Positions 391-13,239 are shown, counted from the first letter of the stretch. The stretch is 14,158 bases of DNA from Candidatus Nanohaloarchaea archaeon (GCA_041640035.1 JBEQBC010000017.1:1-14158); one strand, 5' to 3'. The notes: generated from the sequence alone by a model not told the origin. Made by a program: numbers and translations.

Positions 391-1347
391 TTAAATCCGA
401 TCTCTCTGATGAGGTTTTTCGAAATCCGGATCAGGTCCGATTGGAATCAAGCCCTTCGGATTAACTGAACCATGCGTAGTGAAGTAGTGCTCCTTGATAT
501 GGCTCATGTTAACCGTCTCAGCGATGCCATCGGTCTGGTAGATGTCTCTTAGATACGGCCAGAGGTTCTCGTACTCCATGATCTGTTTCTTGTTACATTT
601 GAAGTGGTTATGGTAGGCTTCATCGAAACGGACCAGTGTAGCGAAGAAACGCAGATCCGCGAGAGTTAACTGATCTCCAACCAGGTATCTCTGATCATCC
701 AGTACCTGGTTCCAGTGATCCAGTTCCTCGAAAAGCTTCTTCACAGCTTTATCGTATGCTTCCTGTGTCTCAGCGAAACCAGCCTTGTAAACACCGTTGT
801 TCACATGTTCATACAGTCTTTCAACAACCTGATCGATCTCATCCCTGTGTTCCTCCGGGTAGAGATTTCTGTCACCGTCGAATGCCTGTGAAAGCATCTT
901 CATGATCTCAATCGACTCGTTGTTCACTATAGTATCTTTTTCTTTATCCCAGAGAACAGGTACTGTGATTCTGCCGGTGTAATCCTCTTGTGCTTCTGTA
1001 TATACCTCATAGAGATAGTCGCTTCCATTCAAAGTATCTTCTGTGCAGTCTTCTTTCTCCGGTGTGAACTGCCATCCTCTCTTGTCTCTGTACGGGTCGA
1101 CTATATCCATGGAGATTTCTTCTTCCAGTCCCAAGAGTTTTCTAACGAGTACTGCACCATGCGCCCATGGACAGGCCCGGGATATGTACAGGTGGTAGCG
1201 GCCGCTTTCCGGCTTGAATTCTGCGTCTTCCTCATTTTTTATCCAGTCTCTGAAACTGGTTGTCGCTCGCTTGAACTCTCCATCTTCATCTGTCATTTCT
1301 TCTGCGTTGAACTGCCATTCGCCGTCGATAAACAAGTGTCTTCCCAT
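391..1347 (-). CDS. Glutathionyl-hydroquinone reductase (Xi-class GST, YqjG/ECM4 family)
   Basis: Motifs GRYHLYISRACPWAH, TVPVLWDK, IVNNES, NNGVYKAGFA, TLVRFD, HFKCN, HIKEHY. Start moved to ATG 1347 (MGRHLFIDG), 4 nt after the DsrE stop and preceded by SD-like AGGTG. Confidence 0.93.
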   Translation of the reverse strand: MGRHLFIDGEWQFNAEEMTDEDGEFKRATTSFRDWIKNEEDAEFKPESGRYHLYISRACPWAHGAVLVRKLLGLEEEISMDIVDPYRDKRGWQFTPEKEDCTEDTLNGSDYLYEVYTEAQEDYTGRITVPVLWDKEKDTIVNNESIEIMKMLSQAFDGDRNLYPEEHRDEIDQVVERLYEHVNNGVYKAGFAETQEAYDKAVKKLFEELDHWNQVLDDQRYLVGDQLTLADLRFFATLVRFDEAYHNHFKCNKKQIMEYENLWPYLRDIYQTDGIAETVNMSHIKEHYFTTHGSVNPKGLIPIGPDPDFEKPHQRDRI

Positions 1348-2060: not shown

Positions 2061-2090
2061 TATAAAAACAGGGGCTAACTTGCAGGTAAG
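2061..2090 (-). promoter_or_regulatory. Promoter of the DsrE operon: palindromic site CTTACCtgcaAGTTAG (2090-2075) followed 6 nt later by TATA box TTTTTATA (2068-2061)
   Basis: ggctaacttgcaggtaagcc (2073-2092) matches its reverse complement at 16/20 positions. TATA spacing fits a leaderless transcript starting near ATG 2035. Confidence 0.7.
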
Positions 2091-2155
2091 CCAGGAGATA
2101 AAGGGAGTTCGAGGTAAGTACAATAACTAAAAGCAAAAAAGGCTATCTATTGTTT

Positions 2156-3535
2156 ATGAAAGAGTTTGACTTGATTGTGCTTGGTTCCGGTTCAGGTCTG
2201 GATGTAGCATCGGGACTAGCCAGAAGAGGACAGGAAGTAGCAGTGGTAGAACCCGGAAGACTAGGAGGCACATGCCTGAACAGAGGATGCATACCCTCCA
2301 AAATGCTTATCCACAGAGCCGATATAGTCGAGGAAATCAATACTTCAGAAAAATTCCATATCGACGCAAAAGTAAACGATATCCAGTTCGAAGAAATAAT
2401 CGAAGAAGTGAACCAAGAAGTTCACAGCGACTCAGACAGTATAGAGAAAGGTCTCAAACAGTCCGATCAACACACACTTTACCAGGAAGAAGGACGATTT
2501 GTCGACGAAAAAGTCATCGAACTGAAGGAGAGCGGAGAGAAGATAACAGCCGAAACAATCGTTATCGCAGCAGGATCCCGACCTTTCATTCCGCCAGTTG
2601 AAGGTACCGATGAAGTAGATTACTGGGTTTCAACAGACGCACTAAACCCAGACTACCAGCCAGATAAAATTGTAATGATTGGAGGCGGATACATCTCACT
2701 TGAACTTGCACATTTCTACGACGCGATGGGTACCGAAGTCACTATCCTGGAAAGAGGAGACAGAGTCCTGAAGAGAGAGGACAAAGACATCTCTGAAAAG
2801 ATCACAAAAATCGCGGAAGAAAGATACGATGTGGAACTGAAGGTTTCAGCAACCGAAATCAGGGAAGAAGACGGTAGGAAAACTGTTGTGGCTGAAAATG
2901 GCGATGGTGATGAAGTTGATTATTATGGTGATGAAATTCTCTTTGCGACGGGTAGAGTACCTAACTCCGACTCCTTACAGGTAGAGGAAGCAGGTATAGA
3001 TACTACGGAACGAGGGTTCGTTGAGACAGATGAACAGATGCGTACCAATGTTAACGGGATCTACGCATTGGGAGATATCGCTGATAACTGGATGTTCAAG
3101 CACTCCGCAAACCATGAAGCAGAGGTAGTGTTCAAAAACATAGTTACAGAGGACCAGTACAGTGTAGATTATCCGGCTATGCCTCACGCCGTGTTCACCT
3201 CGCCGCAGATCGCAGGAGTCGGAAAAACAGAGCAGGAACTGGAAGAAGACGGAAAGGAGTACGGTATCGACTATGTGACCGCAAAATACGATTACAGCGA
3301 TACAGGTATGGGAGGAGCACTGAAAGAGGAAGACGGTTTTGTCAAAGTGCTAGCATCCAACGATGGAGAAATACTTGGCTGCCATATAATCGGCCCACAT
3401 GCCTCACAGCAGATACATGAAGTACTTGTAGCGATGAAAGCAGGAACAGGTCATGTAGATGACATAAAAGACACTATACATGTACATCCAGCTTTAAATG
3501 AAGTCGTTCAAAGAGCATTCAGTCAGATAAGGTGA
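2156..3535 (+). CDS. Class I pyridine nucleotide-disulfide oxidoreductase (dihydrolipoamide dehydrogenase / mycothione reductase-like)
   Basis: FAD motif GSGSG, redox motif GGTCLNRGCIPSK, NAD(P)H motif IGGGYISLE, ATGRVPN, IYALGD, C-terminal HVHPALNE His-Glu pair. ATG 2156 preferred over TTG 2150. Confidence 0.92.
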   Translation: MKEFDLIVLGSGSGLDVASGLARRGQEVAVVEPGRLGGTCLNRGCIPSKMLIHRADIVEEINTSEKFHIDAKVNDIQFEEIIEEVNQEVHSDSDSIEKGLKQSDQHTLYQEEGRFVDEKVIELKESGEKITAETIVIAAGSRPFIPPVEGTDEVDYWVSTDALNPDYQPDKIVMIGGGYISLELAHFYDAMGTEVTILERGDRVLKREDKDISEKITKIAEERYDVELKVSATEIREEDGRKTVVAENGDGDEVDYYGDEILFATGRVPNSDSLQVEEAGIDTTERGFVETDEQMRTNVNGIYALGDIADNWMFKHSANHEAEVVFKNIVTEDQYSVDYPAMPHAVFTSPQIAGVGKTEQELEEDGKEYGIDYVTAKYDYSDTGMGGALKEEDGFVKVLASNDGEILGCHIIGPHASQQIHEVLVAMKAGTGHVDDIKDTIHVHPALNEVVQRAFSQIR

Positions 3536-3545
3536 AAAATCATCT

Positions 3546-4220
3546 TTGAGAAGAATCTCTAGCAGGGAGATGGCTGAAATCGATGAAAAAGTACCTGAGA
3601 AGTACGGTATAACAGTTTCAAGGTTGATGGAGAACGCTGGCTATCAGATTGCAGAATTCATTCGAAAAGAAGTTGACCCTGAATGCATCGCGGTCTATGC
3701 AGGTAAAGGAAACAACGGCGGAGATGCTCTGGTGGCTGCACGGAGACTGGTACTATGGGGCTACGATGTAGAAGTTGTGCTTCTGACAGAAGAACTTGAC
3801 GGTATAAGAAAAGAGGAGTTGGAGATACTCAAAGAACTGGATGTAGATATCAGTCTGGAAGAACCCCGTAGAAACTTTAGTACAGCAGTAGATGGCTTGA
3901 TAGGTTACAGCCTGAAGGGAGATCCGCGTCCGCCTCTAGACAAGATGATAAACGAGGTAAACAATGGGTATGAAACGGTTATCAGTATAGATGTACCCTC
4001 AGGTGTAGAATCAGACACTGGAGAGAAGCTTGATCCCCATGTCAACCCAGATTACACCGTGACCCTGGCGATGCCAAAAACAGGTATAAACAAGGAAAAC
4101 TCCGGTGAGATATGGGTTGCCGACATTTCCGTTCCCCCACAGGCCTACAGAGACCTAGGGTTTGAACTAGACCTCTTCAAAGAATCTTCGCTGGTCAAGA
4201 TGAACGACCACAAAATGTAA
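3546..4220 (+). CDS. nnrE: NAD(P)H-hydrate epimerase (stand-alone YjeF_N domain)
   Basis: LMENAG, GKGNNGGDALVAARRL, VDGLIG, ISIDVPSG, TVTLAMPK. TTG start is preceded by SD-like AGGTGA overlapping the upstream stop. Confidence 0.92.
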   Translation: MRRISSREMAEIDEKVPEKYGITVSRLMENAGYQIAEFIRKEVDPECIAVYAGKGNNGGDALVAARRLVLWGYDVEVVLLTEELDGIRKEELEILKELDVDISLEEPRRNFSTAVDGLIGYSLKGDPRPPLDKMINEVNNGYETVISIDVPSGVESDTGEKLDPHVNPDYTVTLAMPKTGINKENSGEIWVADISVPPQAYRDLGFELDLFKESSLVKMNDHKM

Positions 4221-4234
4221 TCCATGTATTTCGT

Positions 4235-4768
4235 TTATTCTCTGCCTGAATACTTGAATACAGCTGCTGATTGAGCGAGTCCAGCTACCAGTGTTGAGAG
4301 AGCCTGGATACTTGTTGTCTCAGTCAGCACTCCCAAGAGGAAAAACATTGTCAGGAAGGAGGATAGATGTGTCAATAATGTATAGAGGCTTGTATCCTGT
4401 TCTGTGAAGTCTGCTACAATCTTGAATCCGTAGCCTGTTGCTGTCAGCCAGAAAACGGTCGTCCCCACAAATAGTTGTTCATGGAAAGTATTCTGGTATA
4501 TCGAAACCGATGCAGCAATGTTAAGCAGTATTCCAGCGATAAACATCCTTCTCCAGGTCAATCCCTGAGGAGAAGTCATATCCCTGTATCTGTACAGAGT
4601 GAATGCTCCGAGCAAGACAGCTGATACACCGTACAGAAGGTAGATATTCTCTGTATATACGCCTTCAGATACATAAGCCGTGGTTGTGGCAAGCCAGAAA
4701 GCCAGTACCGGTACCGCTAGAACTGCCTTGTAAAGTTTCTGTGGAATGTATTCTGTAACTTCAAACAT
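4235..4768 (-). CDS. Uncharacterised multi-pass membrane protein (about 6 TM)
   Basis: 177-aa ORF with repeated hydrophobic segments that fills the gap and is divergent from the HxlR gene. Confidence 0.8.
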   Translation of the reverse strand: MFEVTEYIPQKLYKAVLAVPVLAFWLATTTAYVSEGVYTENIYLLYGVSAVLLGAFTLYRYRDMTSPQGLTWRRMFIAGILLNIAASVSIYQNTFHEQLFVGTTVFWLTATGYGFKIVADFTEQDTSLYTLLTHLSSFLTMFFLLGVLTETTSIQALSTLVAGLAQSAAVFKYSGRE

Positions 4769-4841
4769 ACTCTTTATTCACTCTGTAAACGGGTTTTGTC
4801 AGATCAGAATTAAATAGCTCGTGAAACAGTTTTTCCACAAT

Positions 4842-5183
4842 ATGACTGACAAAGATATGCCCGAGTGGTGTGAAACAGAGGAGTGGTGTCCGGTAACCGT
4901 GACCTCAGAGCTTCTTAACCGTAAATGGCATCCTGTGATCGTTCACAGGCTTCTTCAGCAACCATTGGGTTTCAACGAGCTTCAAAGAGAGGTACATCAT
5001 ATATCAGACAAAGTACTTTCAGATAGTTTAGACGACCTCCAAGAGAAGAACATAGTAGAGAAAGAGATAATCCAGGAAAGCCCGAAGAAGGTAAATTACT
5101 CACTTACAGAGGCAGGAAGATCGCTTGAGAAAGTGATTGAACCGATGTATGAGTGGGGAGAAGAAAACGCTGACAAAGTCTGA
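4842..5183 (+). CDS. HxlR/DUF24-family winged-helix transcriptional regulator with N-terminal cysteines
   Basis: WCPV...LLNRKWHPVIVHRLL, GFNELQ, ISDKVLSDSLDDL, PKKVNYSLTEAGRSL...WG. ATG 4842 chosen because TTAAATA begins 32 nt upstream. Confidence 0.92.
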   Translation: MTDKDMPEWCETEEWCPVTVTSELLNRKWHPVIVHRLLQQPLGFNELQREVHHISDKVLSDSLDDLQEKNIVEKEIIQESPKKVNYSLTEAGRSLEKVIEPMYEWGEENADKV

Positions 5184-5184
5184 A

Positions 5185-5213
5185 CTTTCCAAACGGTAAG
5201 CCGCGGTTTATTA
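5185..5213 (+). promoter_or_regulatory. Thioredoxin promoter: palindromic site CTTTCCaaacGGTAAG (5185-5200), 6 nt gap, TATA box TTTATTA (5207-5213)
   Basis: Same palindrome and same spacing as the DsrE promoter. TATA begins 32 nt before ATG 5239. Confidence 0.7.
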
Positions 5214-5238
5214 ACACGCAGAAACCAGTAATACACAT

Positions 5239-5505
5239 ATGGTATTATACGAATTTTACGGCGATGGATGCCCTCACTGTGAGAAGATGGAACCTAAAGT
5301 CGAAAAGGTTCAAGAACAGGAAGATGTAGAAGTTGAACAGAAAGAGGTCTGGAACGACGAAGAAAACGCCAGAGAACAGGAAAAATACGATGATGGAAAA
5401 TGCGGCGGAGTACCTTTCTTCTACAACACAGAAACAGAAGAATGGATATGTGGCGAAACCGACTACGAAACACTGAAAGCCTGGGCAACCGGCCAAGAGG
5501 TATAG
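5239..5505 (+). CDS. Small thioredoxin/glutaredoxin-fold protein (CPHC)
   Basis: EFYGDGCPHCEKM active site, GVP cis-Pro motif, two extra Cys (CGGVP, WICG). Confidence 0.92.
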   Translation: MVLYEFYGDGCPHCEKMEPKVEKVQEQEDVEVEQKEVWNDEENAREQEKYDDGKCGGVPFFYNTETEEWICGETDYETLKAWATGQEV

Positions 5506-5518
5506 AGGCGAACTAAGA

Positions 5519-5608
5519 ATGGGAGAAGACGACAAAGTCTGCAAGGCCTGTGGCACAAGCTTTGATACAGACGAAGAACTAGACGAACACCAGGAAGAAG
5601 AACACTAA
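5519..5608 (+). CDS. 29-aa single C2H2 zinc-finger microprotein
   Basis: MGEDDKVCKACGTSFDTDEELDEHQEEEH* exactly fits C-x2-C-x3-F-x5-L-x2-H-x4-H. SD-like GAGGCG at 5505-5510. Acidic composition like its neighbours. Not in the ORF track. Confidence 0.85.
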   Translation: MGEDDKVCKACGTSFDTDEELDEHQEEEH

Positions 5609-5689
5609 CTTCGGACATGTCGGACAGCCGAGAATAGGTTTATTAGGGGTTGAGAACCCTTTAATGGGTAAGAGGTGTCAAACAAGATT

Positions 5690-5797
5690 ATGAAGACTCA
5701 ATCCTACCAGACCGCTGACAATGTCCCACACTACATCCCACTAGACCTGCTGGAAGAAGACAGGAACTCCGGTTTCTTCAGCTTCCTACGAAGATAA
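5690..5797 (+). CDS. 35-aa small protein with C-terminal amphipathic aromatic/basic tail
   Basis: MKTQSYQTADNVPHYIPLDLLEEDRNSGFFSFLRR*. TATA-like TTTATTA at 5639-5645, SD GAGGTG at 5672-5677, and a downstream hairpin plus pyrimidine tract. Confidence 0.6.
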   Translation: MKTQSYQTADNVPHYIPLDLLEEDRNSGFFSFLRR

Positions 5798-5806
5798 AAA
5801 ATCATT

Positions 5807-5858
5807 AATTGAAACCCACAGGGGGAGAGGGGGCGCTTCAATTTCCATCTTTCTTCTT
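5807..5858 (+). terminator. Possible terminator/structured element: AATTGAA...TTCAATT stem enclosing GGGGGAGAGGGGG, followed by a T/C-rich tract
   Basis: Inverted repeat 5807-5813/5837-5843, then tccatctttcttctt, immediately after the 35-aa ORF. Confidence 0.35.
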
Positions 5859-5950
5859 ATAGTGTTCGACAGTTTTCGTTTTCTGTGTCAGGTAGTATTA
5901 AATTCATGCAGTACTGACTATTGGGGTATAGAGGTTCTAAACTGGAAATA

Positions 5951-6307
5951 ATGACTTCAGAACAGATACAGCAGGACCTGAAACAGGACCTGGTAAGAGT
6001 AAAGGATTTGAACGAAAGAAAATACGGCTACTTCACAGACAACTTCTACATACTGAAAACAGCTCTCAGATACTTCACAGTAAGGCAGAGCCGACCGATC
6101 ACATCATCCAAACTTTCGGACAACTTCCCTATGACAGCACCGATAGCAGGATCATGCCTCGACATCATGGACAAACTGGACATACTAGAAAAAAGAAGCA
6201 AATCCAACTCACCAGACCTGTACATGCCCGAAAAAGCAGACCTTGAACGAATGACCGAAATCGAAAAGGTACTGAAACAAAACTACGAAATAGAAGAATT
6301 CTACTAA
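5951..6307 (+). CDS. Hypothetical protein, probable winged-helix fold
   Basis: ITSSKLSDNFPMTAPIAGSCLDIMDKLDILEK...PDLY resembles a helix-turn-helix plus wing pattern. ATG 5951 preferred over TTG 5921. Confidence 0.7.
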   Translation: MTSEQIQQDLKQDLVRVKDLNERKYGYFTDNFYILKTALRYFTVRQSRPITSSKLSDNFPMTAPIAGSCLDIMDKLDILEKRSKSNSPDLYMPEKADLERMTEIEKVLKQNYEIEEFY

Positions 6308-6312
6308 AACCT

Positions 6313-7572
6313 ATGGGCCTACTCGACAAGATAAAGTCAACACTTGAGACAGAAGACGATCGACAGCCGGACAGAAAGATAGTCATAGAGCCGGAAGAAG
6401 CACCTGAAATGGTGAAGGACGCATACGCAGGGCAGATAGAGACCGCGAAAGAACACGAAGAAGAACTTATAGATGAAACAGATGAACTCCTGAACCAGCT
6501 AGAGAACAATCTAGAGGAAGTCGAGGAGTATGAGGATGTTGAGGGAATCAAAGCTGCTGAAGACATCGCACAGAGCTTCTACAACTCCCGTAAAATAATG
6601 ATCGAAAACTTCAACCCGGATAAAGATACAGAGAGCTACGAAAACGCCCTGGAAGACTTTCTTTCAGAATTCAACGATGTGGACAGAAAGGAGAAAGCGT
6701 TGATGGAGCGTATGAAGACCGATGTAGTCGGGATCGCCGAAACAGTCCAGAAACTGGGAGATAAACTGGAAGAGATCAAAGAGTTCAACGAAAAAGGCAA
6801 GAAGATGCTGTACGATATAGATAATCTTGAGAAAGAAGTCAATCAGTACAACGAAACAGTAAACATGATAGGAGAGAAGAAAAACCAGGTTCAGAAACAG
6901 GAAGAAGAAATACAGCAGCTTGAAGAACTTCTCAGCCAGAAAAAAGACGAACTAGATGATTTGAAGGAAACGGAGGAATGGGAAGAGAAAGAGGAAATCG
7001 AAGAGGAAATCCAGTCCGTGAAATCAGATATCAAAGACCTGGAGAACAAGTTATCCAGCTCGGCATCCAACCTTGAAAGAGGCTTGAAGAAGCTGATATA
7101 CCAGGTAGAGAACCAGGGAATGAACTTCTCCGGGAAGATTGAAAACTTGAAAAAGCTGAAAGAAGAGGGATTCAACGACCTTGAACCTGTAGAGGACGAT
7201 CTTGAAGAAGCCAGGACGAAGATTAGGGAAGAAGAACTTCTTTCCGGACGCCAGCTTGAAGAGTTCGAAGACGAAGTCGAAAACCATCCCGAATATACTT
7301 CAGAAATAGAGGAGTTATCTGAACTGCGTGCAAGAAAGGAGGATCTAGAGGAAGAACTGGAAAACGCAGAGGCCTTGAAGAAGAAAAAGAAACTCAAAAA
7401 CAAGATACAGGAAGTCAAGAACAAGATAGAAAGCCAGCAAGAAAAACTGGAAACGCTGGAAGACGATTTAGAGGACTTAAAACAGGAGAAAAAATCTCTC
7501 AAATCCAGTATCAAGGATGATACAGAAGAACTGATGAATGAGCCTGTAGAATTCAAGAATACTGCAGCCTAG
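6313..7572 (+). CDS. Long acidic coiled-coil protein with N-terminal amphipathic helix
   Basis: 419 aa, E/K/L heptad pattern nearly throughout, N-terminus MGLLDKIKSTL, no Walker A motif. Starts 5 nt after the upstream stop. Confidence 0.85.
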   Translation: MGLLDKIKSTLETEDDRQPDRKIVIEPEEAPEMVKDAYAGQIETAKEHEEELIDETDELLNQLENNLEEVEEYEDVEGIKAAEDIAQSFYNSRKIMIENFNPDKDTESYENALEDFLSEFNDVDRKEKALMERMKTDVVGIAETVQKLGDKLEEIKEFNEKGKKMLYDIDNLEKEVNQYNETVNMIGEKKNQVQKQEEEIQQLEELLSQKKDELDDLKETEEWEEKEEIEEEIQSVKSDIKDLENKLSSSASNLERGLKKLIYQVENQGMNFSGKIENLKKLKEEGFNDLEPVEDDLEEARTKIREEELLSGRQLEEFEDEVENHPEYTSEIEELSELRARKEDLEEELENAEALKKKKKLKNKIQEVKNKIESQQEKLETLEDDLEDLKQEKKSLKSSIKDDTEELMNEPVEFKNTAA

Positions 7573-7612
7573 TGAACATTAATTTATATCTCACCGATAC
7601 CATACCAATAAT

Positions 7613-7765
7613 ATGAGACCTGATTACAGGGTAAATGGAGTACCATGCTACGAACTTGAATCCGAGGAGGAACTGGACCATCTACCAGAACATCTCAGAA
7701 AACTGGCAACCATCGGAGACAGAAACGGAAACAAGATTGTAGCACATATCCCGCGTTACATGTAA
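7613..7765 (+). CDS. 50-aa hypothetical small protein
   Basis: MRPDYRVNGVPCYELESEEELDHLPEHLRKLATIGDRNGNKIVAHIPRYM*. TTTATAT box at 7583-7589 begins 30 nt before the ATG (leaderless geometry). Fills an otherwise empty gap. Not in the ORF track. Confidence 0.7.
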   Translation: MRPDYRVNGVPCYELESEEELDHLPEHLRKLATIGDRNGNKIVAHIPRYM

Positions 7766-7777
7766 TCACTTTCAGCG

Positions 7778-7806
7778 GTTACCTTCACGAAACCTTCTCG
7801 TTTAAC
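7778..7806 (+). promoter_or_regulatory. AKR promoter: degenerate palindrome GTTACCttcaCGAAAC (7778-7793), 7 nt gap, TATA-like TTTAAC (7801-7806)
   Basis: Similar half-site and N4 spacer to the sites at 2075 and 5185. SD-like GAGGCG at 7832-7837 implies a short leader. Confidence 0.45.
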
Positions 7807-7846: not shown

Positions 7847-8647
7847 ATGAAGGAAATACCACAGCTCGGGCTTGGAACCTGGCAAAACACAGATCCAGAA
7901 CAGTGCGCAAAATCAGTTCAAACAGCTCTCGACATGGGATACAGACACATCGATACAGCACAGGCATACAGCAACGAAGAAGATGTCGGAAAAGGACTGA
8001 AACAATCCGAAGTAAGCAGAGACGACTACTTCCTGGCAACCAAGGTATGGATAGACAACCTAGCACACGAAGATGTACTGGAAACCACAGAGGAAAGCCT
8101 AGACAAACTAGATGTAGATAGCGTTGACCTACTGTATGTTCACTGGCCGGCAAGAGCATACGACCCGGAAGAAACCATGGAAGCATTCAATCAGCTGGTT
8201 GAAGAAGGTAAAATCGACAATATCGGAGTAAGCAACTTCTCACCTGAACAGATCGAAGAAGCACAGGAACACGCAGACACCAAGATACTGGCCAACCAGG
8301 TCGAGATGCATCCACTGCTCCAGCAGGATGAACTGGTCGAATACTGTCAGGACAACGACATGTACCTGGTAGCATACAGTCCTCTGGCACGAGGTAAAAT
8401 TATGGAAGTACCTGAGATCCAGGAAGTCGCCGAGAAACACGGAGTTTCAGAGGCACAGGTCAGCCTGGCATGGATCCTGCAGCACGACAATGTTGTAGCT
8501 ATCCCGAAGGCTTCTTCAGAAGACCACATCCAGGACAATTGGAACGCCAGAGACCTCGCACTCGATCAGGAGGACATAGAGAAGATTAACTCGATCGAAA
8601 GAGTGGACAGACAGGTAGATCCAGACTTCGGAAAAGGCTGGGAATAA
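7847..8647 (+). CDS. Aldo/keto reductase (DkgB/2,5-DKG reductase-like)
   Basis: LGLGTW, GYRHIDTAQAYSNE, ATKVW, DLLYVHWP, IGVSNF, NQVEMHP, AYSPLARG, IPKASS. Asp/Tyr/Lys/His tetrad intact. Confidence 0.95.
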   Translation: MKEIPQLGLGTWQNTDPEQCAKSVQTALDMGYRHIDTAQAYSNEEDVGKGLKQSEVSRDDYFLATKVWIDNLAHEDVLETTEESLDKLDVDSVDLLYVHWPARAYDPEETMEAFNQLVEEGKIDNIGVSNFSPEQIEEAQEHADTKILANQVEMHPLLQQDELVEYCQDNDMYLVAYSPLARGKIMEVPEIQEVAEKHGVSEAQVSLAWILQHDNVVAIPKASSEDHIQDNWNARDLALDQEDIEKINSIERVDRQVDPDFGKGWE

Positions 8648-11637: not shown

Positions 11638-13239
11638 TTAGATGTACCCTTCGATGATCTTCCTGGATTTTTCAACTCCCAATGCAGCTAACAGTGTGGA
11701 AAGCCGTGGTCCCTGATCACGGGAAAGAAACACCTGATAACAAGCAGTGAAGAACTCACCGGTCGAAAGCTCCGACTCATCCTTCGCATCGAAAACAGCC
11801 TGATCCAGCTCATCAGTATCCTCAAAATCACCTTCCAAGTTACCGTACAGGATTTCAACTGCCTCAAGTTCTTCCTCGCTCAGTTCATCAAGTACTTCTT
11901 CGTCCGGTTCTTTATTAATACTGTAGAGGTAATCTTCAGGCGCATAGTTTCTCGCCCAATTCTTCGCTTTCTCTAGTCTGCTGAGAACCTGCTCTCTTTG
12001 TTCCTCAGATAGTTCTTCTGGGATGTGTCCTGTGGAACGGAGCGATTCGAAAGCCGTAGTATTCCATTCATCTTCTGGAATGGTCTGAGCCAGCAGTGAT
12101 GCGTGTTTGAAGGGAATCCTTACAGGCTGCTCTTCAGGGATATCAACCATCGCGATCTCGTAGACCCGTTCTCTGTGCTTCTCTTTCTTCTCATTCTCCA
12201 TCTCAATCTCATCAAAGTAAGTCTTCTCGAAACGATCAAAACGATCATACACCTGGATAATCTCCTCATCAAACGCAAGAACAAGTTCAGATTTCGGCTT
12301 GTTCTGCGAGAACAGGAACCTTATCATCTCAGGGCTGTAAATCTGCTTCAAATCGTCCAATGTGAGCGTGTTTTCCCCTGCGCTGCTGGAAATCTTCTTA
12401 TCGCTGCCTTTCGGCTTCACGAAGTCGTACATCTGATAGATAGGTGCGTCGTCTTCGTATACTTCTTCTACTATTTCTTTTCCGGTGTCACGGCTACTTC
12501 CTGCCGCGGAGTGGTCCTTACCTCCTGGTTCGAAGCTGACCTGTTCGTAATGCCATCTCATAGGCCAGTCAACCCTCCACGGAGGCTTCACATTACCTTC
12601 TTCCTCGAAGTTCAGTTCAAACTCTTCGTCACATTCCTCGCAGTAGTACTCAACTGTGTAATCCCCATCGTATTCTTTGACTTCAGTGAAGTCTTTCCCA
12701 CATTCCAGACAGTATACTCTTAACGGGTAGTAAGGTGTTTCAAGCGGTTCCTGACGGTACTGGTCAAGTATTTCTTTGATCTTTTCTCTGTGGTTCAAAG
12801 CCTGTTTAATCAGGTCTGCGTACTCTGCTTTCTCGAACATCTCTGTCTGCCGGATAAACTCGATATCCATATGGAAATCTTCCAGTTGCTCTTCAAGCAT
12901 CTGTTCGAAATGCTCCGCATAACTGTCATGACACTCTTCTGGATCTGGTACTTTGGAGAGCGGTAGTCCGATGTACTGCTCCCATTCATCCGGTACATTA
13001 TCAGGTACTTTCCGGAAACGGTCGTAGTCGTCCCAAGAGTAGATGAAACGGGCGTCTTCTCCTCTTTCCTTCAGCGACTTCACCACGAAGTCGGTAGTGA
13101 TTATTTCACGGAAGTTTCCTATATGCACCATCCCGGATGGAGAGATCCCTGAGGCGCATACATAGGTATCTCTGTCTTCAAATTTTTTCGCGGTTGCAAA
13201 TGCTAACTGGTCACTCCAGAAAAGAGGTTGATCGCTCAT
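11638..13239 (-). CDS. lysS: Lysine--tRNA ligase, class I
   Basis: SGISPSGMVHIGNFRE, WDDYDRFRKVP, two CxxC pairs, WRVDWPMRW, EPGGKDH, KISSS (KMSKS equivalent), GPRL. Confidence 0.98.
   Translation of the reverse strand: MSDQPLFWSDQLAFATAKKFEDRDTYVCASGISPSGMVHIGNFREIITTDFVVKSLKERGEDARFIYSWDDYDRFRKVPDNVPDEWEQYIGLPLSKVPDPEECHDSYAEHFEQMLEEQLEDFHMDIEFIRQTEMFEKAEYADLIKQALNHREKIKEILDQYRQEPLETPYYPLRVYCLECGKDFTEVKEYDGDYTVEYYCEECDEEFELNFEEEGNVKPPWRVDWPMRWHYEQVSFEPGGKDHSAAGSSRDTGKEIVEEVYEDDAPIYQMYDFVKPKGSDKKISSSAGENTLTLDDLKQIYSPEMIRFLFSQNKPKSELVLAFDEEIIQVYDRFDRFEKTYFDEIEMENEKKEKHRERVYEIAMVDIPEEQPVRIPFKHASLLAQTIPEDEWNTTAFESLRSTGHIPEELSEEQREQVLSRLEKAKNWARNYAPEDYLYSINKEPDEEVLDELSEEELEAVEILYGNLEGDFEDTDELDQAVFDAKDESELSTGEFFTACYQVFLSRDQGPRLSTLLAALGVEKSRKIIEGYI

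Follow-up and report, generated by a model that had tools for sequence, protein, structure and literature searches.

A 16-bp pseudo-palindrome, made up of a strong GGTAA half-site and a weaker TTWCC half-site, stands a few nucleotides upstream of the TATA boxes of redox genes at four places in a 14,158-base contig (C17) of Candidatus Nanohaloarchaea archaeon (GCA_041640035.1, JBEQBC010000017.1), which was analysed over its whole length and is called the window hereafter. Comparison with related archaea suggests that this motif is probably the operator of a clade of HxlR/DUF24 regulators marked by the sequence WCx5WCP, and that it serves a small and local thiol/electrophile-stress regulon. The complete reading, in which the regulator also activates its targets, is put forward more tentatively, its chances being in our view a little short of even.

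The genome (G000) comprises 978,572 bases in 24 contigs, with a G+C content of 45%. Gene models were rough calls of our own (1098 genes, leaving 10% of the sequence non-coding), and across these calls a TATA signal lies 25-31 nt before the starts, indicating mostly leaderless transcripts. For individual TATA boxes the assignment relied on sequence composition and location.

Sites in the window and in orthologous promoters

The best match to the consensus in the genome is site 3, CTTTCCaaacGGTAAG (5185-5200, plus strand), in the promoter of trx, which encodes a small thioredoxin-like protein. It begins 2 nt past the stop codon of the neighbouring hxlR gene and is followed by the spacer ccgcgg, the TATA box TTTATTA (5207-5213) and the ATG at 5239. 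The intergenic region between the dsrE operon and a reductase gene holds two sites, which read on the dsrE strand as CTTACCtcgaACTCCC (2103-2118) and CTTACCtgcaAGTTAG (2075-2090). The latter, site 1 (minus strand), has two mismatches to CTTACC-N4-GGTAAG and is separated by the 6-nt spacer cccctg from TTTTTATA (2061-2068, minus strand), the best TATA match of the dsrE operon (score 4.5), 33 nt before the ATG at 2035. The former, site 2, reads GGGAGTtcgaGGTAAG on the plus strand, contains GGTAAG at 2113-2118, and is separated by about 5 nt from a weak TATA box, TAACTAAA, and by 38 nt from the ATG of the reductase. Site 4, GTTACCttcaCGAAAC (7778-7793, plus strand), precedes an aldo/keto reductase (AKR) gene and is followed by the 7-nt spacer cttctcg and by TTTAAC (7801-7806); the ATG lies at 7847, so that this transcript probably has a leader.

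An earlier note on this DNA had placed these four elements, and re-reading the sequence confirmed each of them. The distances that it gave from site end to ATG (40, 39 and 38 nt for dsrE, trx and the reductase) are all correct, to which we add 54 nt for AKR. Its claim of a fixed distance upstream of the TATA boxes of redox genes is likewise borne out, the sites ending 5-7 nt before the TATA box. The motif had been described as a clean palindrome, CTTACC-N4-GGTAAG; the element is real but its consensus is asymmetric, (C/G)TTWCC-N3/4-(G/A)GTAA(G/C), the GGTAA half being strong and the TTWCC half weak.

The earlier note had also held that the motif should be conserved in orthologous promoters. 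We found the site kept at the trx genes of relatives, with counterparts at dsrE and AKR. The hxlR-trx pair is found again in related genomes, and the site with it, the distance to the TATA box being 6-7 nt throughout and the general form YTTTCY-N4-RGTAA(G/C): CTTTCTtcgaGGTAAG in G009, ATTTCAtcaaGGTAAG in G006a, ATTCCTtcaaGGTAAG in G001 (where the hxlR stop codon lies inside the site), CTTTCCttaaGGTAAG in G021, CTTTCCgggaAGTAAG and CTTTCTcctgAGTAAG at loci L176 and L177, GTTTCCacaaAGTAAC in G006b and GTTTCGggagAGTAAC in G013. The trx promoter of G008 has a GGTAAG half-site, with the full site GTTACCtggGGTAAT 12 nt upstream. When ten trx promoters, including that of the window, were aligned, complete invariance outside the start codon was confined to T23 and G33-T34-A35-A36; T24, C26 and four TATA columns were nearly invariant, and the sequence between TATA box and ATG was diverged among the ten. 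The alignment left out the siteless promoters of G019 and G022, the six from other families (G031, G035, G027, G040, G039 and G038, the last one truncated) and locus L178, whose promoter sequence is identical to that of G006a. No site was found in the trx promoters of G019 and G022, nor in the six from other families. In G019 no HxlR of the main clade was found, and in G022 only a distant paralogue clade.

In a strict scan of orthologous promoters, requiring GGTAA exactly and TTWCC with at most one mismatch, 4 of the 13 trx promoters carried a site, against 17 of 1088 background promoters (1.56%; p=3.8e-5). The loci of G000 itself, those with less than 111 nt upstream, and AKR or dsrE matches below 60% identity (paralogues) were excluded.

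Outside trx, single promoters of relatives provide the most direct comparison. G008, which belongs to another genus, shares the divergent dsrE/reductase pair and has GTTACCtcgaACTCAG upstream of dsrE, with 7 nt between it and the TATA box. This counterpart is identical to window positions 2103-2118 at 14 of 16 positions (hand count), and the remaining spacer differs. The reductase had been credited with a lone GGTAAG half-site; this is indeed present at the position proposed, but it belongs to a complete 16-mer, since the G008 counterpart matches the whole of it while the flanks have diverged. In G001 (same genus, AKR protein 85% identical, flanks unrelated) GTTTCCtcaaGGTAAC is followed by 7 nt and TTTAAC at the same position upstream of AKR. 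The weak AKR site and the reductase half-site thus gain support from their counterparts in relatives. In G021 a perfect palindrome, GTTACCtatGGTAAC, stands 3 nt before the ATG of AKR. Several reductase orthologues directly follow trx and a small zinc-finger gene, and may share the trx promoter and be co-transcribed from it.

Superoxide dismutase (SOD) is a possible further member of the regulon. Its gene in G000 (C1:253273-253863, plus strand) is preceded by TTACTCCAAGGTAAC (C1:253204-253218; loci L144/L150), then 7 nt and TTTATA, and GTTACC-N4 half-sites also occur upstream of SOD in G003, G008, G018 and G024. Among 24 SOD orthologues the half-site was present in nine (p=0.019) and the full site in one. 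SufB and SufS were also considered as members and were dropped, having only sites with two mismatches.

Association with hxlR and the candidate regulator

The half-site is also abundant in the promoters of hxlR genes. We assembled a homologue set of 80 hxlR loci, taking one genome per species (53-75% identity; seven nanohaloarchaeal loci, the rest from Halobacteriales). Their upstream regions are rich in (G)GTAAC: as a rule one copy directly adjoins the TATA box, with more copies, or TTTCT, lying a few bases farther upstream. When the 5-mers of these regions are ranked by z-score relative to a first-order Markov expectation, GTAAC comes first (16.5). In the 130 nt upstream of hxlR, GTAAC/GTTAC occurs 117 times, in 63 of the 80 loci, a density of 11.25 per kb, whereas the remainder of these loci has 0.89 per kb. 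At 46 of the 80 loci an A/T-rich 6-mer directly adjoins the half-site; random windows gave 2.2 such cases on average and 6 at most.

G000 itself encodes a second HxlR protein on contig C1 (C1:115908-116291, minus strand; locus L024), 59% identical to that of the window. In the HxlR tree this paralogue pairs with the G001 protein, and the window copy with those of G006a and G009. In the promoter of the paralogue, a single nucleotide separates the TATA box from GGTTACCtttGGTAACC, a perfect palindrome of 17 bp. Perfect or near-perfect palindromes were found in the hxlR promoters of loci L024, L026, L016, L017, L012, L025 and L006, and similar ones in those of G006b, G014, G008, G031 and G027; they are often perfect GTTACC-N3/4-GGTAAC repeats abutting the TATA box. 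Autoregulation is the simplest explanation of these half-sites, and if they are so read, it is likely HxlR that binds the related sites of the window. At L024, hxlR is divergent from a gene for a secreted protein of about 680 amino acids (C1:116400-118439, plus strand) that resembles a multicopper oxidase, judging by copper-site-like motifs recognised by eye.

The linkage extends to the target genes. hxlR, trx and the reductase gene are neighbours in G009, G013, G003, G023 and G008, and hxlR is divergent from a Pyr_redox_2 reductase gene in 8 of the 80 loci, mostly in Haloarcula; in the seven of these loci that were inspected, the reductase TATA box is preceded by GTAAC at 5-7 nt. Among the 80 loci, hxlR also has neighbours that encode a peroxiredoxin, an AhpD-like CMD protein and an Rdx-family protein. 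The suggestion that the HxlR protein encoded next to trx binds the sites is thus supported for the family, whose promoters the half-sites mark in 63 of 80 loci and at the C1 paralogue, but the neighbouring copy is not singled out, because the genome holds two paralogues and the neighbour's own promoter lacks a clear site.

The window gene, hxlR-A (4842-5183, plus strand), encodes a protein of 113 amino acids that is a candidate binder. It matches PF01638 over residues 24-112 (E 2.4e-24; 85.4 bits for a cut-off of 20.8), and its best match in the PDB is HypR (4a5m, E 3e-18). Its N-terminal motif is WCETEEWCPV, and by translation C10 and C16 are its only cysteines. C16 aligns with the CPV cysteine of HypR (EEWCPVTVT versus KEGCPVEFT), and HypR Cys14 is, according to PMC3351151, the sensing residue conserved among DUF24 regulators. 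No partner cysteine was found in hxlR-A at the position of HypR Cys49, so any two-cysteine switch must have a different geometry. Domain and sensing cysteine thus assign the protein by sequence to HxlR/DUF24, outside the HypR two-Cys subtype. The W-C-x5-W-C pattern (residues 10-16, window 4869-4889) is present in all 80 homologues and in 27 of 29 copies from relatives, the two copies without it being the most distant ones (31-34% identity); WCx5WCP may be a clade-specific disulfide or metal site. The 6-N3/4-6 pseudo-palindromes, as putative operators, have the palindromic form and the length of about 16 bp of HxlR/DUF24 operators.

Promoter geometry, mode of regulation and alternatives

The sites occur in two registers. 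In target promoters the half-site ends 5-7 nt before the TATA box: the spacers measure 6-7 nt in the ten trx promoters, 6 and 7 nt at dsrE, 7 and 7 nt at AKR, about 5 nt at the reductase of the window and 5-7 nt at the Haloarcula reductases. In hxlR promoters this distance is 0-2 nt, which puts the half-site in the slot of the transcription factor B (TFB) recognition element (BRE). The placement at targets is fixed and lies just upstream of the BRE, as for archaeal upstream activators of the OxsR and Ptr2 kind. The earlier note had further remarked on C/G- or pyrimidine-rich sequence before the TATA box where a purine-rich BRE is expected. This holds for four of five promoters (trx, dsrE, AKR and SOD), in which A is absent from the 6 nt ahead of the TATA box, as it is in 32 of 255 TATA-bearing promoters (12.5%) genome-wide, the BRE region of G000 promoters being otherwise 35-41% A; it fails at the reductase, with three A.

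From these sequence features we infer HxlR as the binder, and likewise the signal and the direction of regulation. An HxlR dimer would bind the 16-bp pseudo-palindrome through the strong GGTAA half and the degenerate half, and the four sites would serve trx, the dsrE-dsrE-gst-msrA operon, the reductase gene (with yjeF_N) and AKR. Oxidation or alkylation of the conserved cysteines, C16 as the counterpart of HypR Cys14 and C10 as a second cysteine, would switch the protein. At the targets HxlR would help to recruit TFB and the TATA-binding protein (TBP) to A-poor BRE regions and so activate transcription; at hxlR promoters, including that of the C1 paralogue, a half-site in the BRE position beside the TATA box would lead to autorepression. 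Activation at the targets is favoured by the precedents of HypR and OxsR, by the A-poor spacers and by the position of the sites.

Several observations weigh against this reading. The earlier note had proposed to examine the genome-wide frequency and positional bias of the motif, and within G000 the frequency is at or below background level and there is no peak. With at most one mismatch, CTTACC-N4-GGTAAG has a single match in the 978,572 bases, the trx site itself, for a random expectation of about 2; with two mismatches there are 21 matches, for about 35 expected (hand estimates). No positional peak of GGTAA[GC] was found 38-40 nt from the 1087 called starts tested, where it occurs in three cases, two of them those of the window. 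The left half-site is degenerate, and at the TATA-proximal position of the G008 trx promoter only a half-site stands. The strict scan was weak outside trx (AKR 1/10, dsrE 0/3, reductase 2/24, SOD 1/24); GGTAAG was not found near -38 in any of the 24 reductase orthologues, most of which lack a site of their own. The absence of the site where main-clade HxlR was not found rests on the trx promoters of G019 and G022 and on dsrE of G015, and the related genomes are not independent observations. The hxlR promoter of the window shows no clear site, the one candidate being a weak GTAAACgggTTTTG at 11 nt from the TATA box, so that in G000 autoregulation is indicated only for the paralogue. Finally, the reductase spacer is not A-poor, and the BRE signal of the genome is itself weak (mean of 2.0 A in 6 nt).

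We rejected genome-wide enrichment as support: the motif exceeds chance only through its conservation in orthologous promoters and its presence in hxlR promoters. The lack of enrichment indicates a small regulon rather than a spurious site, and the regulon of the earlier note, which does have sites at several redox genes, is small and local, not genome-wide. A loose form of the site (GGTAA exact, TTWCC with at most one mismatch, gap 3-4) occurs 81 times in G000, with 22 copies in non-coding sequence as compared to 49 of 535 for four control words together, a modest non-coding enrichment. Three of the four exact sites in the genome are non-coding, namely the trx site, the site of the second hxlR promoter on C1 and one on C14, in a stretch without annotation. 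Over 41 genomes exact TTACC-N3/4-GGTAA gave 52 sites and its reversed control 19; both counts are under a hand-made composition estimate and are not taken as strong evidence. The C14 copy, TTACCTTGGGTAA (C14:9919-9931; locus L145), is an exact palindrome within about 3 kb without a called gene, where we found only short open reading frames (ORFs) and no match to an Rfam family. Two matches with two mismatches lie inside the lysS coding sequence of the window (12517-12532 and 12719-12734) and are probably due to chance.

That the whole pattern is a chance resemblance among A/T-rich promoters, with no shared function, is in our opinion very improbable. The background frequency without a positional peak, the lysS matches and the weakness of the second half-sites would fit it, but the GTAA core is kept in ten trx promoters despite diverged flanks, and neither the strict trx scan and the z-score of the hxlR-promoter 5-mer nor the non-coding excess over the control words agrees with it. 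The element could also be functional and bound by another factor, either a transcription factor or a variant of TFB or TBP reading GGTAA, with HxlR merely co-regulated. The archaeal BRE has the consensus RNWAAW, which GGTAAC beside a TATA box resembles; the hxlR gene of the window lacks a clear site, and the tie between HxlR and the site is one of sequence. We consider this unlikely nonetheless: two registers, together with inverted repeats separated by 3-4 nt, fit a dimeric winged-helix protein and not a BRE, and the association follows hxlR over Nanohaloarchaea and Halobacteriales regardless of the neighbouring genes.

The alternative that deserves most attention keeps the operator and the regulon and changes the sign of regulation. 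The regulator would be a thiol-sensing repressor of the YodB/CatR/QsrR type: reduced HxlR would cover the BRE and block TFB, and once its cysteines were oxidised or alkylated it would leave the DNA, with derepression of trx, dsrE, the reductase and AKR. YodB and QsrR, which are thiol-sensing repressors, are among the closest solved relatives of hxlR-A in the PDB, a further point against activation. The redox sensing of YodB and CatR is cited in PMC3351151. Sites of the same type also stand in clearly repressive positions, abutting the TATA box in hxlR promoters, between TATA box and start at L016 and L017, and 3 nt before the ATG of AKR in G021, which again speaks against activation, and with the 16-bp site ending 5-7 bp short of the TATA box, the footprint of a dimer might extend into the BRE. 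However, independent promoters keep the spacing within a narrow 5-7 nt, as needed by stereospecific activators and not by repressors, the spacers are A-poor at four of five promoters, and HypR and OxsR provide precedents for activation from upstream sites. Repression at the targets is accordingly a possibility that we regard as doubtful though by no means negligible.

A bolder extension of the activator reading, speculative and on balance unlikely, would be a position-coded thiol switch common to Halobacteriales and DPANN Nanohaloarchaea, combining autorepression from the BRE slot, upstream recruitment of TFB and a new WCx5WCP sensor. Where GGTAA occupies the BRE slot, at hxlR genes, the regulator would be in competition with TFB and so repress itself; where GGTAA stands exactly one BRE-length farther upstream, at redox genes, the regulator would recruit TFB to A-poor BREs. 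The WCx5WCP pair would then be a new kind of DUF24 sensor, forming an intrasubunit disulfide or a metal/cluster site. In the comparison of loci L176-L255 the nanohaloarchaeal HxlR proteins are 53-67% identical to the copies of many Halobacteriales genera (Haloarcula, Halorussus, Haladaptatus, Halosimplex and others), and a quick tree of 106 homologues places them among these in six separate groups, each purely nanohaloarchaeal and mostly with weak support. This tree was built with host-to-symbiont transfer in mind and no conclusion was drawn from it. One redox code might be read by symbiont and host alike, as suggested by this identity and by the interleaving of their proteins in the tree.

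Gene content and known systems

The gene identities proposed in the earlier note agree with our Pfam and NCBIfam searches. Site 1 would serve a putative operon on the minus strand (3-2035), made up of two dsrE genes (1700-2035 and 1352-1690), a gene with glutathione S-transferase (GST) domains (391-1347, or to 1419) and msrA (3-386, running off the contig), all identified by Pfam; their gaps of 4-9 nt or overlaps led us to infer a single operon. The GST-like protein contains a CPWAHG motif (391-1347, minus strand; read from the translation), presumably typical of Xi-class glutathionyl-hydroquinone reductases, its family models being Pfam GST domains only. Such an enzyme, if truly present, would suit a quinone-stress regulon. 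Downstream of site 2, the candidate member is a class I pyridine-nucleotide disulfide oxidoreductase (2156-3535, plus strand; Pfam and NCBIfam), whose best NCBIfam model is a dihydrolipoyl-dehydrogenase subfamily with a score below its cut-off; with the YjeF_N NAD(P)HX epimerase gene it spans 2156-4220 (plus strand; Pfam). The trx gene (5239-5505, plus strand; CPHC motif) is a candidate member recognised by Pfam and by its synteny with hxlR in relatives, and AKR (7847-8647, plus strand; Pfam and NCBIfam) is a candidate through site 4. An ORF for 29 amino acids at 5519-5608 (plus strand) encodes a C-x2-C...H-x4-H pattern with weak matches to zinc-finger families of Pfam. The peptide sequence also occurs between trx and the reductase gene in G009, G019, G013 and G034, and the ORF is probably a genuine micro-gene conserved as part of the cluster.

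Regulation of transcription is almost unexplored in Nanohaloarchaea and other DPANN archaea. The analysis offers a concrete and testable operator, a small thiol/electrophile-defence regulon and a candidate sensing motif, WCx5WCP. Haloarcula and other Halobacteriales, which have the same hxlR/reductase pair and half-sites, are tractable stand-ins, and the two distances at which the site stands from the TATA box form a natural test of whether position sets activation or repression at archaeal promoters.

Among known systems, SurR of Pyrococcus furiosus is likewise an archaeal redox-switched winged-helix protein with a short palindrome whose position sets activation or repression; it differs in being of the ArsR type, with a CxxC motif, in its recognition sequence GTTn3AAC and in responding to sulfur. 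YodB, QsrR and CatR belong to the same family as hxlR-A (5hs7 and 4hqm are among its PDB matches) and have an N-terminal sensing cysteine. The regulons of YodB and QsrR comprise quinone and aldehyde reductases and thiol-repair genes, like AKR, the GST-like gene and trx here. Their operators and that of CatR overlap bacterial core promoters, whereas the target sites described here are situated immediately before the BRE, and in sequence those operators have no relation to TTWCC/GGTAA.

HypR (YybR), a MarR/DUF24 regulator of Bacillus subtilis, is alike in having a 16-bp inverted-repeat operator and a redox-enzyme target. According to PMC3351151, the repeat leads to activation when upstream of the target promoter, and the same repeat downstream of HypR's own promoter probably leads to repression. 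The HypR operator differs in sequence, GTATCAAAATTGATAC (7-2-7) as compared to TTWCC-N3/4-GGTAA; HypR forms a Cys14-Cys49' intersubunit disulfide, whereas the present clade has CX5C and no cysteine at the second position; and HypR works with bacterial machinery, under position rules relative to the -35/-10 elements and not to BRE/TATA. OxsR of Haloferax volcanii, according to PMC9426492, is an archaeal single winged-helix protein with a conserved sensing cysteine that acts as both activator and repressor, its motif lying upstream of BRE/TATA for activation and its targets including a thiol relay. It is a TrmB-family protein (PF01978) and not a PF01638 one, and its motif is CG-rich, unlike TTWCC/GGTAA.

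Our full-text literature search, with subscription-only literature outside its scope, found no paper on an operator or regulon of an archaeal HxlR-family protein. By analogy, the system is likely to resemble a thiol switch of the HypR or OxsR type with a palindromic operator. The new details are the operator itself, the WCx5WCP motif and the two-register geometry, which extend from a DPANN lineage to cultivable haloarchaea.

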